From Microcystis aeruginosa NIES-843 (lineage in GTDB: Bacteria > Cyanobacteriota > Cyanobacteriia > Cyanobacteriales > Microcystaceae): DNA of 32,000 nt. The stretch covers positions 3,450,001 to 3,482,000 of the forward strand of contig NC_010296.1 of the NCBI RefSeq assembly GCF_000010625.1. Reading direction: 5' to 3'. The notes under the pieces were generated by a model, which saw nothing but the letters and a program-made list of their open reading frames with translations, was not told the origin of the DNA and made no database searches. This document shows positions 5,750 to 12,292 of this stretch, piece by piece; within the stretch, counting starts at the first letter, position 1, and every line of letters begins with the position of its first letter. A program made the position numbers and the translations under genes.

Positions 5750-5965
5750 TTAACTGTTGTCCCATTCTTCATCACTAATACCCGCTTGTTTGAGAATTTC
5801 CTTAACTAAATCTGTAGAGATTTCTTGATTTCCATGAGGGTTAGGGATGCGAATTTTATGTTGACCCTTTTTCATAAATTGATGTTTACTACCAGAAAAA
5901 GGTCCTGTGTAACCTAAAGCTTTCAATTTTCTGATTAATTTTCTGCGAGAAATTGCTGATGGCAT
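5750..5965 (-). CDS. hicA: HicA-family mRNA interferase toxin
   Basis: 71 aa. The pattern RKLIRKLKALGYTGPFSGSKHQFMKKGQHKIRIPNPHGNQEISTDLVKEILKQAGIS matches the HicA dsRBD-like fold signature. Confidence 0.8.
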   Translation of the reverse strand: MPSAISRRKLIRKLKALGYTGPFSGSKHQFMKKGQHKIRIPNPHGNQEISTDLVKEILKQAGISDEEWDNS

Positions 5966-5967
5966 AA

Positions 5968-6216
5968 CTAAACTTCTGCAACTGTTGTAACTTTAATTTC
6001 TAATCCATCTATGATAGGTAAAGGGTCGCCATCTTGTAATTTTAAAATGATCCATTCTTCTAGAACTTCTAGTAAGTCTTGACGGCATTCTTCAACGGTC
6101 AATCCATTTCCCCAAACGCCTTGAAAGCCTTCTATTTCAGCAAACCAAGTACCGTCATTTAGCCTTTTGTATTGTGCTTTTTGTAAAGCTTTTTCACAAT
6201 AATTGAGTAAGATCAT
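5968..6216 (-). CDS. hicB: HicB-family antitoxin (N-terminal HicB fold only)
   Basis: 82 aa. Motif TWFAEIEGFQGVWGNGLTVEECRQDLLEVLEEWI. Stop lies 2 nt upstream of the hicA start. Confidence 0.7.
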   Translation of the reverse strand: MILLNYCEKALQKAQYKRLNDGTWFAEIEGFQGVWGNGLTVEECRQDLLEVLEEWIILKLQDGDPLPIIDGLEIKVTTVAEV

Positions 6217-6471: not shown

Positions 6472-6666
6472 TCACTTCTCCTCACCAATCCCATCACACA
6501 AATGTCTATCCTCCTCCTTAACGCCAGAATTAGGATTGTGCAAATAAACCCGCACCCAATCGCAACTACGCCCCATTAAAGCGTTTAAGTCCTGCATTGT
6601 CCTACAATCTTTCTGTATTGTCCTACAACTCTTCTGCATCGCCCTATAATCCTTCTGTATCCTCAC
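6472..6666 (-). pseudogene. Remnant of the 3' tail of a WD40/STAND gene, fused to 21-bp tandem repeats
   Basis: LMGRSCDWVRVYLHNPNSGVKEEDRHLCDGIGEEK parallels the C-terminal tail of the 962-aa protein (LMERSCDWVRVYLHNPNSDVREEDRGLCDGIGGK). About 110 bp of DNA similarity between 6478-6600 and 6790-6900. Confidence 0.65.
6596..6658. repeat. Three tandem 21-bp units (ATTGTCCTACAATCTTTCTGT and variants)
   Basis: Read directly. Units at 6596-6616, 6617-6637 and 6638-6658. Confidence 0.85.
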
Positions 6667-6773: not shown

Positions 6774-9662
6774 TCAAAATCCTGATACTGACGATTTACC
6801 CCCAATCCCATCACACAAACCCCTATCCTCCTCCCTAACATCAGAATTAGGATTGTGTAAATAAACCCGCACCCAATCGCAACTACGTTCCATTAAATCA
6901 CTTAAACCCCAGTCTGTCCCAAGATTCCAGAGTTTGATAGTCTTGTCATCACTACCGCTCACCAATGTCTTGCCGTCGGGACTAAAACTAACGCTACTGA
7001 CAAAGCTACCATGCCCCCTGAGGGTGCGGATTTCTTGTCCTGTTTCTACATTCCAGAGTTTGATAGTGTTGTCATTACTACCGCTCACCAAAGTCTTGCC
7101 GTCGGGACTAAAATTAACGCTATTGACAAACCAATCATGCCCTTTGAGGGTGCGGATTTCTGTTCCTGTCTCGACATTCCAGAGTTTGATAGTTTTGTCC
7201 CCACTACCGCTCACCAATGTCTTGCCGTCGGGACTAAAATTAACGCTTCTGAAATAAATATCATGCCCCTTGATGGTGCGGATTTCTTTGCCTGTCTTTA
7301 CATTCCAGAGTTTGATAGTGTTATCCCTACTAACGCTTACCAAAGTCTTGCCGTCGGGACTAAAATTAACGCTATTGACATAACTATCATGCCCCTTGAG
7401 GGTGCGGATTTCTTCGCCTGTTTCTACATTCCAGAGTTTAATAGTATTGTCACCACTACCACTCACCAAAGTCTTGCCGTCGGGACTAAAATTAACGCTA
7501 ATGACAGAGTTATCATGCCCCTTGAGGGTGCGGATTTCTTGGCCTGTTTCTACATTCCAGAGTTTGATAGTTTTGTCCCCACTACCGCTCACCAAAGTCT
7601 TGCCGTCGGGACTAAAATTAACGCTATTGACAGGGCCATTATGCCCCTTGAGGGTGCGGATTTCTTCCCCTGTTTCTACATTCCAGAGTTTGATAGTGTT
7701 GTCCCAACTACCGCTCACCAAAGTCTTGCCGTCGGGACTAAAATTAACGCTCTGGACACCATCATGCCCCTTAAGGGTGCGGATTTCTTCGCCTGTTTCT
7801 ACATTCCAGAGTTTGATAGTGTTATCCCTACTAACGCTTACCAAAGTCTTGCCGTCGGGACTAAAATTAACGCTTGTGACAAAGTCCTTATGCCCTTCTA
7901 AGCGATTGCGTTCACTTTTCCAGTTGAGAAGTGCTTGTAAGGTATTCATCACCTCCTTGTCATATTTGTGTTGCTTTTGCAGGGTTTTTCCTGCCTTAAT
8001 CGCTAAGACGAAAGCATCTAAGTCTTTTCCTTGAACAAACAAAGACCAGGAAGAAAACCCGCGAGCATTTGCTAGATTGAGTTCAGCTTGTCGCGTTTGT
8101 TTCCAAGCCATTAAACCCAATCCCGTACTAACCATCACCGCCACCAACGAAACCGCTGTAATCCTTCGCGCTGTTCTAATTTTTTCGTTTTTTTGTCGTT
8201 CTGCTTGACTAATACTCGCCTTAATAAACTCAATCGCCACAGGATCTAAATTAGGCAGAGAATTATTCTTTTGAAACTCAACAATTTTGGCTAACTTAGA
8301 ACCGCCCCAAAGCTCACTACTCGCTTTTACTGCATCTTGCTTCTGTAAATCATCCCACTGTTTAGCATCAGCATATAAACGACTTCTCAGAACAATTATC
8401 TCCTCTTTTTCTCGAATTAAATCCTGTAACACTTTCCAAGAACGTAATAACGCCTCATGTGCCACCTCAACCGTTGCTTTCCCGTCTTCTCCCTTACTCA
8501 CCAAAAGACGATTATCTATTAATTGATAGAGAACCTCCTTTTGCATTTCCTCCTGTTCAAAACTCGATTTATCCGCCCTTCTGCTAACCGCTTTTTCCCC
8601 TTCTAAACTAATTAACTCTAGAAAAATTTCCTCTGCTGTTTTCCGTTGCTGTTCATTAAATTGACTATAAATTTTATCCGCTTGTTTTTCTAGCGCACCC
8701 GTTACCCCACCAATCTCTTGATAAATCTTATTATTTAAAACCCGCTCTTGAATATGATTTTTTTGCCACAATAAATCTAACGTATATTGTAACAGAGGTA
8801 AAGAGCCAGCCTGTTCATAAAAATCGGCAATAATTTGATTAATTAATCCCTTTTCAAAGATTACCCCATTTCTCGCCGCCGGTTCAGCAATAGCTAATCT
8901 TAACTGACTTTCATCCATATCCGTTAACATCTTGCTATACTGATCATGGATTTTTCCTAAACTGGGATAAGGACTTAATTTATCTAAAAAATCCGCCCTC
9001 ATCGTCATCACAATTTTAACTAAACTATTATTATTTTCAATTAATTTAATCAAACTTTTAATGAAAATATCTCTTTCCGTCTTCGGTGTACGAGTAAATA
9101 ATTCCTCAAATTGGTCAATAAAAATAAACCATAAATCAGAATTATTTTTTAATCCTTCAACCACCTTAATTAAAGTATCTTCCTTAACAGCTTGTGCTAA
9201 TTTCGCTTGGTATTGTGTATATCTATTCCCTAAAAGACAACCATAGAAAGACTCAAAGGGATTAACATCAGGAACAAAAGTTAAATTAACCAATCTATTC
9301 GCACCAAAATCATCCTTTAACTTAGGAATTAAACCCGCTTGCACGAGAGAAGATTTACCGCTTCCCGACGCACCTAAAAGCAATAAAACATTCTTTTGCT
9401 TTAAATAATCGGTTAACTCAACAATCCAATTATCTCGACCAAAAAACCTATCCTTATCATCTACTTCAAACTTCCTTAAACCCAAATAAGGTGAACCCGT
9501 AATTAAAGGTTGAGACTGAATCTCAACTCCTGACTTTTGGGTGATAATATATTGATTGATTACACCCCCACTAATATCACCTGCAATTCCCTTAAATTCA
9601 CCATCACCAATAAGACCTTTAACATCACCCCCTATTTCTAAATAATAACTTTTATCAGTCAT
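6774..9662 (-). CDS. STAND (NLR-like) P-loop NTPase with an N-terminal Gly/Asp-rich motif, one predicted TM helix and 8 WD40 repeats
   Basis: SPYLGLRKFEVDDKDRFFGRD followed by Walker A LLLLGASGSGKSSLVQAGLIPKL, and Walker B-like WFIFIDQFEE. Hydrophobic segment ITAVSLVAVMVSTGLGLMAW (about 8104-8163). Eight GH...SVNFSPDGKTLVSGS.D.TIKLWN units. Confidence 0.9.
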   Translation of the reverse strand: MTDKSYYLEIGGDVKGLIGDGEFKGIAGDISGGVINQYIITQKSGVEIQSQPLITGSPYLGLRKFEVDDKDRFFGRDNWIVELTDYLKQKNVLLLLGASGSGKSSLVQAGLIPKLKDDFGANRLVNLTFVPDVNPFESFYGCLLGNRYTQYQAKLAQAVKEDTLIKVVEGLKNNSDLWFIFIDQFEELFTRTPKTERDIFIKSLIKLIENNNSLVKIVMTMRADFLDKLSPYPSLGKIHDQYSKMLTDMDESQLRLAIAEPAARNGVIFEKGLINQIIADFYEQAGSLPLLQYTLDLLWQKNHIQERVLNNKIYQEIGGVTGALEKQADKIYSQFNEQQRKTAEEIFLELISLEGEKAVSRRADKSSFEQEEMQKEVLYQLIDNRLLVSKGEDGKATVEVAHEALLRSWKVLQDLIREKEEIIVLRSRLYADAKQWDDLQKQDAVKASSELWGGSKLAKIVEFQKNNSLPNLDPVAIEFIKASISQAERQKNEKIRTARRITAVSLVAVMVSTGLGLMAWKQTRQAELNLANARGFSSWSLFVQGKDLDAFVLAIKAGKTLQKQHKYDKEVMNTLQALLNWKSERNRLEGHKDFVTSVNFSPDGKTLVSVSRDNTIKLWNVETGEEIRTLKGHDGVQSVNFSPDGKTLVSGSWDNTIKLWNVETGEEIRTLKGHNGPVNSVNFSPDGKTLVSGSGDKTIKLWNVETGQEIRTLKGHDNSVISVNFSPDGKTLVSGSGDNTIKLWNVETGEEIRTLKGHDSYVNSVNFSPDGKTLVSVSRDNTIKLWNVKTGKEIRTIKGHDIYFRSVNFSPDGKTLVSGSGDKTIKLWNVETGTEIRTLKGHDWFVNSVNFSPDGKTLVSGSNDNTIKLWNVETGQEIRTLRGHGSFVSSVSFSPDGKTLVSGSDDKTIKLWNLGTDWGLSDLMERSCDWVRVYLHNPNSDVREEDRGLCDGIGGKSSVSGF
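6921..7895 (-). repeat. Array of 8 near-identical 126-bp (42-codon) WD40 repeat units
   Basis: Units align by eye at DNA and protein level. This repetition also generates the long antisense ORFs in the track. Confidence 0.9.
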
Positions 9663-9727
9663 TTTTGCTACCCCAAAATTATTCTTTTAAAGTTAACTTT
9701 AAATTGCAGTTTTAGAATTAGCAATTT

Positions 9728-10123
9728 TTAAGGACTTCCTACTAAACCAAACAATTTAGCCAAACCGCCTAAAATCGTTACAATTAAAGCGACTAAAATC
9801 CCTCGACTGACAAACTCTTGATTCTCTAAGCGCTTTTCCACGCCATCATTTTTTCCCTCTAGACGCTTCTCAATACCATCAATTTTTTCCTCCAGACGCT
9901 TCTCGACACCATCAATTTTTTCCTCCAGACGCTTCTCGACACCATCAATTTTTTCCTCCAGACGCTTCTCGACACCATCAATTTTTACCTCCAGACGCTT
10001 AATTTCACCTTTAACTTCACTAAGTTCAATCTTAATATCAGTAACATCTTTTTGAAGATTGTCTAACTTTTGATTGATTTGAATTAGAAAATCTTTAAGT
10101 TCTACCTCAACAGTAATTGACAT
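9728..10123 (-). CDS. Tail-anchored coiled-coil protein with KIDGVEKRLEE tandem repeats (XhlA-like architecture)
   Basis: 131 aa with AGGAGGG 8 nt upstream of the ATG. Heptad-rich N-terminal ~100 aa, then C-terminal hydrophobic helix GILVALIVTILGGLAKLFGLV. The XhlA resemblance is by architecture only. Confidence 0.7.
   Translation of the reverse strand: MSITVEVELKDFLIQINQKLDNLQKDVTDIKIELSEVKGEIKRLEVKIDGVEKRLEEKIDGVEKRLEEKIDGVEKRLEEKIDGIEKRLEGKNDGVEKRLENQEFVSRGILVALIVTILGGLAKLFGLVGSP
9828..10002. repeat. About 5.3 tandem copies of a 33-bp unit (CAGACGCTTCTCGACACCATCAATTTTTTCCTC)
   Basis: Units at 9828, 9861, 9894, 9927 and 9960. Units 9894-9926 and 9927-9959 are identical. Confidence 0.9.
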
Positions 10124-10483
10124 AAATTTCCCTCCTAAATAATCCTCAACTAATTAATGTTCTGACTAATATTTCCACCACTAATATCTCCTGCAATTCC
10201 CTTAAAAGTACCATCTCCCACCATTCCCTTAATATCATCACCAACATTAATATTATACTTACCTGCGGCAAATTCTTCAGGTTTTAATTGCTTAAGTAAT
10301 GATTCTGCTGTCTTAATAACCTCTGCATCTCTATCAATTTTTGCTTCAAGTAACTCTTCTTTGAGCAGTGTTTTTACCCCCTCTGAATCTGGTTTTTTCT
10401 CATGTTTATCGACGATATCACTATCATCTGTTTTCCCTTTTTCTGCAAATTTCTTCTTAATCAACGCTTTTAAACCCTCATAA

Positions 10484-11846
10484 TGGGACTTAAACGCCAA
10501 ATAAAGATCAAATCGAGTATAATCGTTAAAGAGTAAGCACTTTACGTTGAAAGAGCAGCGATGAAAGAGACAACCCCAGCCGCGATGCCCCCATGCTTTG
10601 ACCGATGGTGTCGGCGGTTTGACAATTGCTTCAAAAACGAAGCGCAAAAAAACGGCTTCAGACAATATTTAGGAGGATTATTAGGGGAAAGTGAGCGGAA
10701 AAACCTCACTCAAATGGCCAATAATGCCGTCGGAGTAGTTTATAACCGATTACATCACTTTTTGACCGAATCTCCCTGGTCAGACCGTCAGGTGAATGAA
10801 TGTCGGTTGCAAGTGATGAACCAATGCCGCCAGACGCAAATCCCCCGAGGATTTTCCCTGATTGTCGATGACTCAGGACATCGAAAAAGTGGCAATCTGA
10901 CCGCCGGAGTTGGCAGGCAGTACCTAGGAGAAATTGGCAAGACAGACAACGGAATAGTCGCCGTCACTACCCATCTCTACGACGGCAAAAAAAGTGTCCC
11001 CCTAGACATTGAAATTTATCAACCGGCTAGTTCCTTAGCCGAGGGGAAAGAAGACAAAGAATTTAAGAAGAAACCAGAGATAGCGATAGATTTAATTGAC
11101 CGGAGCTTAACCAGAGGCTATCGACCGAAAATCGTCTTAATAGATGCTGGTTATGGCAACAACACAAATTTTCTCAAAGCCCTGGAAGAAAGAAAGCTAA
11201 AATACTTAGGAGGATTGGCAAAAAATCGAAAAGTAATTATTGAAAAAGAAGGGGGTGTGGAAGAAACAATCCAGCTTGAGCAACTAGCAAAAAGCCTATC
11301 AGAAAAGGATTGGGAGAAAATCACCCTAAATCTAGATAAAGAAAAAACGGTTTGGGTAGCGGTATTCAGAGCGAAAATATCTCAACTAGAAGGAGAAAGG
11401 AACTTGGCGATCGTCATGAATGCAAGTTCAATGGAAAAAGCCACAGAGGTGGACTATTTCATCACCAATGTAGTTGAGGCAGATACAGTAACAGCTTCGT
11501 GGATAGTGAGGACTTACACCGAAAGAAATTGGGTGGAAGTATTCTACCGAGAAGCCAAAGGATGGTTAGGGTTAAGGGAATATCAAGTCAGGGATAAACG
11601 AAGCTTACTTCGTCATTTTATCCTGGTGTTTTGTGCCTATACATTTATCCTGTGGCATAAGTTAACTGGGGGATTGCAAAGGCGGTGGGCGAATCGACCT
11701 TTAAACACTTTTGTGGAAGCCTTGGAAGCTTTTCGGACAGCGATGTCTTTCCGTTTCTTTGAGTGGCTGACCGAGAATCGGGATGTGTTTGCCGCTTACA
11801 AAGCCAGTTTAGGCTTTGTTTGGGCTTGAAATTTGTTTAAGTCCCA
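10484..11846 (+). mobile_element. IS701-family insertion sequence (1363 bp)
   Basis: 12-bp terminal inverted repeats TGGGACTTAAAC / GTTTAAGTCCCA. 4-bp direct duplication ATAA at 10480-10483 and 11847-11850. Single transposase ORF. Confidence 0.85.
10561..11829 (+). CDS. IS701-family DDE transposase
   Basis: 422 aa. N-terminus FDRWCRRFDNCF...FRQYLGGLLGESERKNLTQMA, with the IVDDSGHRK and LIDAGYG DDE regions typical of IS701-like transposases. Confidence 0.85.
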   Translation: MKETTPAAMPPCFDRWCRRFDNCFKNEAQKNGFRQYLGGLLGESERKNLTQMANNAVGVVYNRLHHFLTESPWSDRQVNECRLQVMNQCRQTQIPRGFSLIVDDSGHRKSGNLTAGVGRQYLGEIGKTDNGIVAVTTHLYDGKKSVPLDIEIYQPASSLAEGKEDKEFKKKPEIAIDLIDRSLTRGYRPKIVLIDAGYGNNTNFLKALEERKLKYLGGLAKNRKVIIEKEGGVEETIQLEQLAKSLSEKDWEKITLNLDKEKTVWVAVFRAKISQLEGERNLAIVMNASSMEKATEVDYFITNVVEADTVTASWIVRTYTERNWVEVFYREAKGWLGLREYQVRDKRSLLRHFILVFCAYTFILWHKLTGGLQRRWANRPLNTFVEALEAFRTAMSFRFFEWLTENRDVFAAYKASLGFVWA

Positions 11847-12292
11847 ATAAGCATCCTTAACGGCTGTTCCTGCCGTATCCTTAGCAGCAGCAACCGCACC
11901 AGCAGCCAACGCAGCGAGAATTAGAGAAATTGGTTCCATTGCCTGAGACTCCAAATTAGATATTGCTGACTCAATTTTAGATCAAAGCAAAGTATCTGAC
12001 GCAATTATGGCGCAGGTATTGGGTGCGGATGGCTTGCTCGTCGGGGTTGTTGGCTACTACTGCCAGTTGCACATAGGTGGGATAGTAGCGACAGAAGGTG
12101 TAAATCTCACTGTCATCGATGCCCTGCTTGTTCGGTAAAAATCGTTCGCACTGAGGGATGATTTCGACGGGATAGCCGAAAATCTGGACAAAACTGGGAG
12201 TAGCAGTCCTCTAGATGCGCCCAATCAAGCGCACACTCAGATGAAAATTGCTCAAATTCACTTTAACCTAGATTTGTAGAAGTTGGATTAAA

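Follow-up and report, generated by a model that had tools for sequence, protein, structure and literature searches.

The window analysed here is a stretch of 32,000 nucleotides (nt) from the cyanobacterium Microcystis aeruginosa NIES-843 (NCBI RefSeq assembly GCF_000010625.1, contig NC_010296.1, positions 3,450,001 to 3,482,000 of the forward strand), and positions are counted from its first letter unless another locus is named. On its minus strand the window carries three genes: gene 1 for a small helical protein of the Bell (HetE-N) family, gene 2 for a repeat protein and gene 3 for a STAND P-loop NTPase with a WD40 array (Table 1). The proteins encoded by gene 1 and gene 3 share a motif of 34 residues, which is located at the C-terminus of the former and at the N-terminus of the latter, and across cyanobacterial loci such motifs match between direct neighbors. 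We consider it fairly likely that this locus of a colonial cyanobacterium encodes a regulated cell-death module of the Bell/BASS type. In NIES-843, gene 1 is interrupted by an insertion sequence (IS). The coordinates of the open reading frames (ORFs) agree with a preliminary description of the locus, which had been made from the letters alone, in that the three genes are separated by gaps of 65 nt (gene 3/gene 2, 9663-9727) and 26 nt (gene 2/gene 1, 10124-10149). On the coding strand, no terminator-like site is present in either gap. Gene 1 and gene 3, which are collinear, lie 461 nt apart, a distance accounted for by gene 2.

Table 1. Features of the Bell/NTPase locus of M. aeruginosa NIES-843 (positions in the window).
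Feature	Position	Strand	Length	Basis
Gene 3 (STAND NTPase)	6774..9662	-	962 aa	ORF
WD40 array of gene 3, eight 42-aa repeats	6924..7913	-		Pfam WD40, E=2e-111
Hydrophobic, transmembrane-like segment of gene 3, residues 501-519, ITAVSLVAVMVSTGLGLMAW	8106..8162	-		hydropathy
nSTAND1 NTPase module of gene 3, residues 58-443	8334..9491	-		Pfam PF20703, E=1.7e-108
NTPase-side motif, gene 3 residues 6-39, YYLEIGGDVKGLIGDGEFKGIAGDISGGVINQYI	9546..9647	-		
Gene 2	9728..10123	-	131 aa	ORF
Gene 1, 3' part (codons 32-140 and stop), rest of Bell domain and C-terminal motif	10150..10479	-		
Bell-side motif, gene 1 residues 106-139, YNINVGDDIKGMVGDGTFKGIAGDISGGNISQNI	10156..10257	-		
IS701-family insertion sequence, between gene 1 codons 31 and 32	10484..11846	+	1363 bp	
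IS transposase	10561..11829	+		NCBIfam NF033540, E=1e-102; Pfam DDE_5, E=1.8e-43
Gene 1, 5' part (codons 1-31), N-terminal hydrophobic helix MEPISLILAALAAGAVAAAKD	11847..11939	-		

The two motif copies align without gaps over 34 residues with 22 identities and 28 positives (BLASTP, E=2e-12), and the 11-mer FKGIAGDISGG is identical in both, so that the earlier hand count of about 22 identical residues in 35 is borne out. The motif is rich in Gly, Asn, Gln, Ile and Val and possesses conserved glycines including an invariant GG. Its position is strictly terminal: the cores of this motif class (class A, see below) are found 2-4 residues from the C-terminus of Bell proteins or within the first 13-40 residues of NTPases, and none was found elsewhere in the Bell or NTPase proteins of the homolog sets, including 120 NTPase homologs. 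When the isolated motifs and gene 1 were compared with Pfam, NCBIfam, PADLOC and PHROGs, nothing exceeded the cut-offs. A profile search with the motif alone in a set of 5.8 billion proteins, which is of limited sensitivity, yielded 17 short fragments, all of them from Bell or NTPase proteins like those described here, and no new domain contexts. For the motif and for the N-terminal helix of gene 1, a double-glycine leader or a signal peptide was also considered and rejected, since the motif is C-terminal in one protein and N-terminal in the other, and the n-region of the helix is acidic instead of basic.

Our interpretation is supported by homology and by the comparison of many loci. A scan with the Bell alignment of the GTDB set, with one genome per species, provided the best 80 loci, all of them cyanobacterial (loci and proteins from the comparison are cited by our running numbers, L and P). 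A collinear P-loop ORF lies downstream of 71 of the 78 Bell genes at these loci, mostly at a distance of 0-25 nt, and 54 of the 71 NTPases are nSTAND1-like in a BLASTP comparison to the NTPase domain of gene 3. The last 38 residues of each Bell protein were compared by Smith-Waterman alignment to the NTPase residues that precede the conserved core. The mean score was 69.8 for cognate and 35.1 for non-cognate combinations. None of 10000 permutations reached the observed mean (z=15.7, a value that overstates independence, since the loci are phylogenetically related). Despite this kinship, the matching of a motif to that of its own neighbor is qualitatively robust.

At least eight motif classes can be distinguished, and the class of each Bell protein is that of its own neighboring NTPase. 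Class A follows the pattern GDxKGxxGDxSGGxxNQxI, class B GDVxGVAGTNxGTVNI, class C GGVQxVxGxNxGT and class G FQGEVKGAQVGDxN..., and further classes are E, F, H and canonical BASS3. The common form of the class A motif is short; a Bell-side example is KYRINVQGDIKGIVGDVSGGEINQTIN and an NTPase-side example SYFSEIGGDFKGIQGDISGGVINQYII. In the pair described here, both partners have an additional unit of nine residues (MVGDGTFKG and LIGDGEFKG) at the same place in the alignment. A beta structure stacked in register would explain why the number of units has to be equal. Extra motif units on the Bell side alone, i.e. pseudorepeats, are seen in Phormidium lacuna (L017, 5998-6426) and in Okeania (L040, 3687-4085). 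On one contig (L034, 6001-8046), an orphan Bell gene of class A precedes a second Bell gene, which is of class B and lies beside a class B NTPase. The 17 Bell-adjacent NTPases without an nSTAND1 match belong mostly to class F (L032-L049, L060, L063, L075, L076, L082); their P-loop is located about 135 residues into the protein and they contain very hydrophobic segments, with Kyte-Doolittle means over 19 residues of up to 3.7. These features point to another family of membrane NTPases, with several spans.

A second Microcystis pair, from M. aeruginosa Ma_SC_T_19800800_S464 (L068, 6001-8570), is of special interest in this context. Its nSTAND1 NTPase has a body about 91% identical to that of gene 3, and its DNA is 94% identical to window positions 7509-9559, but this homology breaks off a short way into the motif region (9546-9647). 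The N-terminus of this NTPase is of class C and matches its own class C Bell protein. Judged from these alignments, the motif and the Bell gene behave like a cassette whose parts co-vary and which can be exchanged while the receptor body stays constant, as a private recognition code predicts. Receptor bodies of about 91% identity with different motifs, and a nine-residue unit present in both partners of the other pair, make the Microcystis loci natural specificity experiments.

Several lines of evidence link gene 1 to a described family. Its homologs (n=346) are all cyanobacterial where the organism is named and are nearly all annotated with the Pfam family HetE-N (PF20701), which was named by Kaur et al. 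2021 (PMC8195603) as an uncharacterized effector domain; of the 47 family proteins in our alignment, 22 hit PF20701 at E<=0.01, with 1e-8 as the lowest value. Gene 1 shares 45% identity (E=1e-30) with a protein from Stenomitos frigidus ULC18 (L039). The motifs of that locus, GKFNVQISGGTVQGLTQQNTGTINQNF at the Bell C-terminus and ...ISGGNVQGFIQENHGTVTQNF at the N-terminus of the neighbor, are the exact text of the pair PSB32048.1/PSB32049.1 (Leptolyngbya frigida ULC18) in Table S2 of Dyrka et al. (10.1101/2020.01.06.895854). Some other members of the family end in RHIM-like BASS3 C-termini. The best-conserved part of the 47 proteins is the N-terminus (MEPISLILAALAAGAVAAAKD in gene 1) with an acidic residue at position 2; its signature reads M-[ED]-P-[IV]-S-L-I-x-A-A-L-x-A-G-A, with M1, P3, S5, I7, A10, L11, A13, G14 and A15 invariant or nearly so. 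An N-terminal helix with an acidic start is a common hallmark of Bell, HeLo, MLKL and RPW8 (Dyrka et al.). Together, the listed ULC18 pair, the BASS3 C-termini and this hallmark show that the gene 1 family and the Bell domains of Dyrka et al. are one and the same. The AlphaFold2 model of gene 1, based on the 47-sequence alignment, consists of five helices between residues 3 and 102 (predicted local distance difference test (pLDDT) about 88), followed by a disordered tail of residues 111-140 with pLDDT <50, which holds the motif.

Gene 3 is the putative receptor. The order of its parts is N-terminal motif, nSTAND1 NTPase, hydrophobic segment and eight-blade WD40 array, in accordance with the 962-aa STAND P-loop NTPase with WD40 repeats of the preliminary description. 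The nSTAND1 match covers profile positions 1-378 of 379 with 364 bits against a cut-off of 27. The Walker A and B motifs are intact, with G97, G102, K103, S104, D183 and E186-E187 in invariant columns of the homolog alignment. The partner had been called an NLR, which holds insofar as it combines a STAND NTPase with WD repeats; its clade, however, is nSTAND1, defined by Kaur et al. 2021 (PMC8195603), and not NACHT/NB-ARC. Three close nSTAND1 homologs (P0187, P0191, P0199) carry a class A or B motif at the N-terminus and possess HisKA/HATPase_c instead of WD40 or are annotated as hybrid histidine kinases. Bell-adjacent NTPase ORFs at other Microcystis loci measure between 637 and 1224 aa, several of them being cut by contig ends.

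In the DNA, the WD40 array appears as a tandem repeat with a period of 126 nt, 7.7 copies and 89% matches (Tandem Repeats Finder), and the AlphaFold2 model of the array shows 32 strands, corresponding to eight blades. Variation between the repeats is concentrated in columns 3-7, 21, 23, 25, 33 and 36. This pattern resembles that of the fungal HET-E/NWD proteins with their hypervariable WD repeats. The full model of gene 3 has a mean pLDDT of 79.7, and its residues 1-44, the end bearing the motif, are disordered (pLDDT <50), so that both motif copies are predicted to be disordered in the monomers. Downstream of gene 3, a 64-aa ORF (6472-6666, minus strand) matches gene 3 residues 920-954 in 29 of 35 positions (E=1e-19), with a 21-nt tandem repeat of 3.1 copies at 6592-6657 beside it. 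This ORF has the appearance of a leftover 3' end, produced by recombination within the WD40 array.

The preliminary description also placed a transmembrane helix between the NTPase and the WD40 part. Indeed, residues 501-519 reach a Kyte-Doolittle mean of 2.0 over 19 residues and are flanked on the N-side by the basic stretch ERQKNEKIRTARR (RTARR). A hydrophobic window about 400 residues past the P-loop is present in 58 of 63 partner NTPases and in 75 of 99 homologs, even where the sequence is unrelated, and hydrophobicity that is kept despite sequence divergence is typical of membrane spans. Gene 3 is therefore probably anchored in the membrane by one predicted hydrophobic segment. From hydropathy alone, the positive-inside rule would possibly place the NTPase in the cytoplasm and the WD40 propeller on the extracytoplasmic side, which would be unusual for NLR-like receptors.

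In NIES-843, the putative executioner gene is split. The inserted element ends in perfect 12-nt terminal inverted repeats (12/12; TGGGACTTAAAC), is flanked by the target duplication TTAT (4 bp, at 10480-10483 and 11847-11850) and encodes a transposase that scores 344 bits with NF033540 (cut-off 150); the DDE transposase, the terminal inverted repeats and the 4-bp target duplication are all the characters of the IS701 family. At the Microcystis ichthyoblabe locus L010, gene 1 is intact and the empty site reads GGATGCTTATGAGGG. In blastn comparisons to several other Microcystis strains, the alignments stop precisely at 10483/11847. Removal of the element (11939..11847 joined to 10479..10150) restores the 140-aa protein that the preliminary description had obtained by repair. 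This protein shares 95-99% identity with the products of seven Microcystis loci, the closest being that of M. ichthyoblabe FBCC-A1114 (99%), and undamaged orthologs are known from elsewhere, e.g. P0001 (98% identity, 111 member sequences). Since the executioner gene is split by the IS701-family element, the module is presumably switched off in NIES-843, with the receptor left intact. Further Microcystis Bell alleles in the databases (P0005, P0006, P0012, P0025) are truncated, frameshifted in the motif or have a replaced N-terminus. Such repeated damage may indicate that the executioner is costly to its carrier. It could also simply be a consequence of the high IS load of Microcystis genomes.

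The product of gene 2 consists of an N-terminal helix, 11-aa (hendecad) repeats of the type EKIDGVEKRLE and a C-terminal hydrophobic tail. The underlying 33-nt repeat is present in 5.2 copies (9831-10000), and its number varies between strains (L001-L004, L010-L016), giving products of 109, 120 and 131 aa. All family matches are weak and comprise coiled-coil noise, XhlA, holin-like proteins and the ssr2422 family; EACC1 was considered and rejected. Gene 2 lies between the Bell and NTPase genes at all Microcystis class A loci and in one metagenome-assembled genome of the Microcystaceae (69% identity). It is absent from the other genera, in which the Bell and NTPase genes either abut or have a DUF29 gene between them. 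DUF29 genes recur between or beside the Bell and NTPase genes at Snowella and Microcystaceae loci (L005/L027, 7111-7572; L006/L007, 5421-5882; L009, 1-196), and at L068 a weak gene 2 homolog is located about 4.5 kb upstream of the pair. The extra gene between the partners that the preliminary description pointed out is thus present, but a role as a core third component was rejected, as most loci lack the gene and a homolog of 51% identity resides in an unrelated context. Because of this homolog and the size of the gene 2 family (1511 representatives at E<=0.001), gene 2 is best regarded as a lineage-specific accessory or passenger of the Microcystaceae, encoding a predicted tail-anchored repeat protein.

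The genes directly downstream of the module (5750-6216, minus strand) encode the toxin HicA (PF07927, E=3e-12) and a UPF0150 antitoxin similar to HicB (E=4.5e-26). Toxin-antitoxin genes (HicA, ParE, BrnT, Gp49/HTH) are also found beside the related loci L001, L005 and L008.

By analogy with characterized systems, the module might work as follows. Gene 3 would be the receptor, and a ligand would be sensed by the hypervariable surface of its WD40 propeller. Ligand binding would lead to NTP-dependent oligomerization of the NTPase, which would gather the disordered, N-terminal Gly/Asp-rich motifs of about 34 residues into a cooperative nucleus of stacked beta-arches, similar to an amyloid. This nucleus might then template the matching motif at the Bell C-terminus, and the templating could free the N-terminal Bell helix for an attack on the membrane, resulting in cell death as abortive infection or as a non-self response. 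The motif would serve as a private address in this process, with an NTPase and its own Bell protein matching both in class and in the number of their 8-9-residue units. The Bell homology, the ULC18 pair of Table S2 and the matching in 71 pairs support the earlier proposal of a Bell/BASS-type effector/NLR pair as far as family and architecture are concerned.

There are also observations that weigh against a cell-death module of this type. Gene 1 itself reaches only 16.7 bits with Pfam HetE-N (cut-off 25). A Foldseek search of the Bell model against the PDB gave nothing below E=1, and a sequence search of the PDB revealed no significant link to HeLo, MLKL or another solved structure. Among the conserved residues of the motif are a Lys and an Asp, and the published BASS motifs are depleted in Lys (Dyrka et al.). 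The membrane span of gene 3 is not reflected in its AlphaFold2 model, which neither buries the segment 499-517 nor models a helix there (pLDDT <50). In addition, gene 2 splits gene 1 from gene 3, and most described pairs are without such a gene. Finally, a PADLOC scan found no matching defence family, the Bell alignment retrieved no relatives from viral contigs, and apart from the HicAB pair the neighbors are mostly housekeeping genes. Defence is therefore no more than a candidate role of the module.

The most serious competitor, albeit in our opinion an unlikely one, is a finite, non-amyloid homotypic contact. The motif could form an augmented beta-strand or a small beta-sandwich within the NTPase oligomer and recruit the Bell protein stoichiometrically, in the manner of the effector-associated domains (EADs). 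Kaur et al. describe for EADs the principle that the most similar adaptors occur in adjacent genes, and nSTAND1 proteins are typical users of these domains. Weak EAD10 matches in 7 of the 47 Bell family members and the conserved charged residues of the motif would be in line with such a contact, too. However, a motif of 21-34 residues that is predicted to be disordered on both proteins is too short for a globular adaptor. The EAD10 matches are below the cut-off (15.4 bits versus 24.1 for gene 1) and mostly fall on the helical part, and the N-terminus of gene 3 has no EAD match. Moreover, the same Bell family includes members with BASS3, an experimentally shown prion former, and both the variation in unit number and the Bell-side pseudorepeats at L017 and L040 mirror HET-s and BASS1/6.

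Far less probable is the assumption that the motif is a sorting or processing signal for a common third factor, be it a protease, a microdomain receptor, possibly gene 2, or a peptidase of the double-glycine type. Both proteins are predicted to be membrane-associated, the GG of the motif is invariant, and in the Microcystaceae a membrane protein is encoded between the partners. However, at least eight classes that match the cognate neighbor only would need as many factors, no dedicated factor is conserved at the loci, and most loci do without gene 2. The location of the motif at opposite termini of the two proteins does not fit a common signal either.

The similarity of the motif copies at the DNA level, which had already been noticed, extends over 71 of 102 nt (9546-9647 versus 10156-10257), and 30 of the 33 nt encoding the 11-residue core are identical. 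Only 17 of 34 third codon positions are identical, which argues against a recent copying event, and the same codon is used for 13 of the 22 identical residues; the similarity of the 33-nt core makes old gene conversion between the copies possible. The 40-aa sequence P0246, from an ENA contig of 1309 nt, consists of an NTPase N-terminus (MTDKSYYLEIGGDVKGLIGDGEFKGIAGDISG) fused in frame to a Bell C-terminus (ATVSQNIN-stop). This natural chimera shows that the two motif copies recombine, a possible route for their concerted evolution. That the similarity is a mere neutral by-product of recombination or gene conversion between neighbors, as the core and the chimera might suggest, is nevertheless hardly credible, since the matching has been kept across many genera and classes with diverged DNA (at the present locus in third positions and codon choice), is confined to the extreme Bell C-terminus and NTPase N-terminus and lies far outside the permutation range.

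Amyloid or prion-like signaling from NLRs to executioners that act on membranes is established in fungi and, more recently, in actinobacteria (at the level of motifs) and in E. coli (Bab/Agp). The motif of the present locus had not been recognized in the preliminary description, and it is missing from the published BASS pair table as well: Table S2 of Dyrka et al. does not contain GDISGG, GDVSGG, DIKG or KGIVG, none of the sequences by which classes A, B, C, G and H can be recognized occurs in their full pair table, and class F has one entry there, listed as 'class_not_assigned'. A full-text literature search with the motif strings and with PF20701/HetE-N retrieved no describing paper. A 2025 paper on the detection of amyloid signaling motifs mentions neither nSTAND nor cyanobacteria, and a 2026 survey of STAND proteins mentions neither amyloid nor Bell. 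In a comparison that covers BASS1-10, the class A motif and its link to the nSTAND1 clade hence appear undescribed. Since the screen of Dyrka et al. looked beside NACHT and NB-ARC only and 54 of the 71 Bell-adjacent NTPases analysed here are nSTAND1, the published catalogue seems to have missed many cyanobacterial cases.

A more far-reaching proposal, which we put forward as tentative and rather doubtful, is that at least seven uncatalogued, orthogonal families of address codes couple Bell proteins to membrane-spanning nSTAND1 receptors with an extracytoplasmic, hypervariable WD40 domain. If this were true, the receptors would be transmembrane and NLR-like, sensing extracytoplasmic cues and passing the signal inward by prion-like templating, and the nine residues added in both Microcystis partners would reflect the equal rung length of an in-register beta-solenoid. 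Microcystis is bloom-forming, colonial and exposed to phages, and regulated cell death is ecologically relevant in this genus.

Among the known systems, the Bell/BASS/NLR pairs of Dyrka, Saupe et al. (2020) are the most similar ones. They share a helical Bell protein of about 120-140 aa with an N-terminal hydrophobic helix, whose C-terminal motif is repeated at the N-terminus of a collinear STAND NTPase with WD repeats, and they are found in colonial or multicellular cyanobacteria, Microcystis included. For BASS1 and BASS3, prion and fibril formation has been shown by experiment, which is a precedent for the proposed mechanism in other motif classes. In contrast to the NACHT and NB-ARC partners of these pairs, the partner described here belongs to nSTAND1, outside their screen; its motif with the additional 9-residue unit is not among theirs, and the present locus has an extra gene between the partners and a conserved hydrophobic segment ahead of the WD40 array.

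The Bab/Agp system of E. coli (BASS11) also combines a small Bell-related executioner with an adjacent sensor, whose N-terminus matches the C-terminal motif of the executioner. For this system, amyloid signaling leading to membrane alteration, cell death and abortive infection was demonstrated experimentally (Ibarlosa et al. 2024; 10.1101/2024.11.07.622273). Its sensor, however, is of the TPR-GreA/B-C-PIN type, its motif is a different one and it resides in prophages or defence islands. The nSTAND1 systems coupled by EADs (Kaur, Burroughs, Iyer, Aravind; PMC7159879, PMC8195603) agree with the present locus in the NTPase clade and in that the adjacent effector and NTPase carry the most similar adaptor. 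They differ from it in that their adaptor is a globular alpha-helical EAD or Death-like domain and not a disordered, Gly-rich motif of 21-34 residues.

In the fungal HET-S/NWD2 system (HRAM), an NLR with highly similar, hypervariable WD40 repeats uses its N-terminal motif to template the C-terminal prion-forming domain of a helical membrane executioner, and some of the effectors contain motif pseudorepeats. The present system is bacterial and its NTPase is of another clade, and no Pfam HeLo or HET-s matches were obtained for the module proteins at E<=1 to 10. The resemblance to HET-S/NWD2 is a functional analogy or, at best, reflects a very distant relationship. Taken together, the type of system, a Bell/BASS-NLR pair, is already known and does not imply a categorically new mechanism; what is new at the Microcystis locus is the motif class, the NTPase clade that serves as partner, the extra gene between the partners and the probable membrane span of the receptor.

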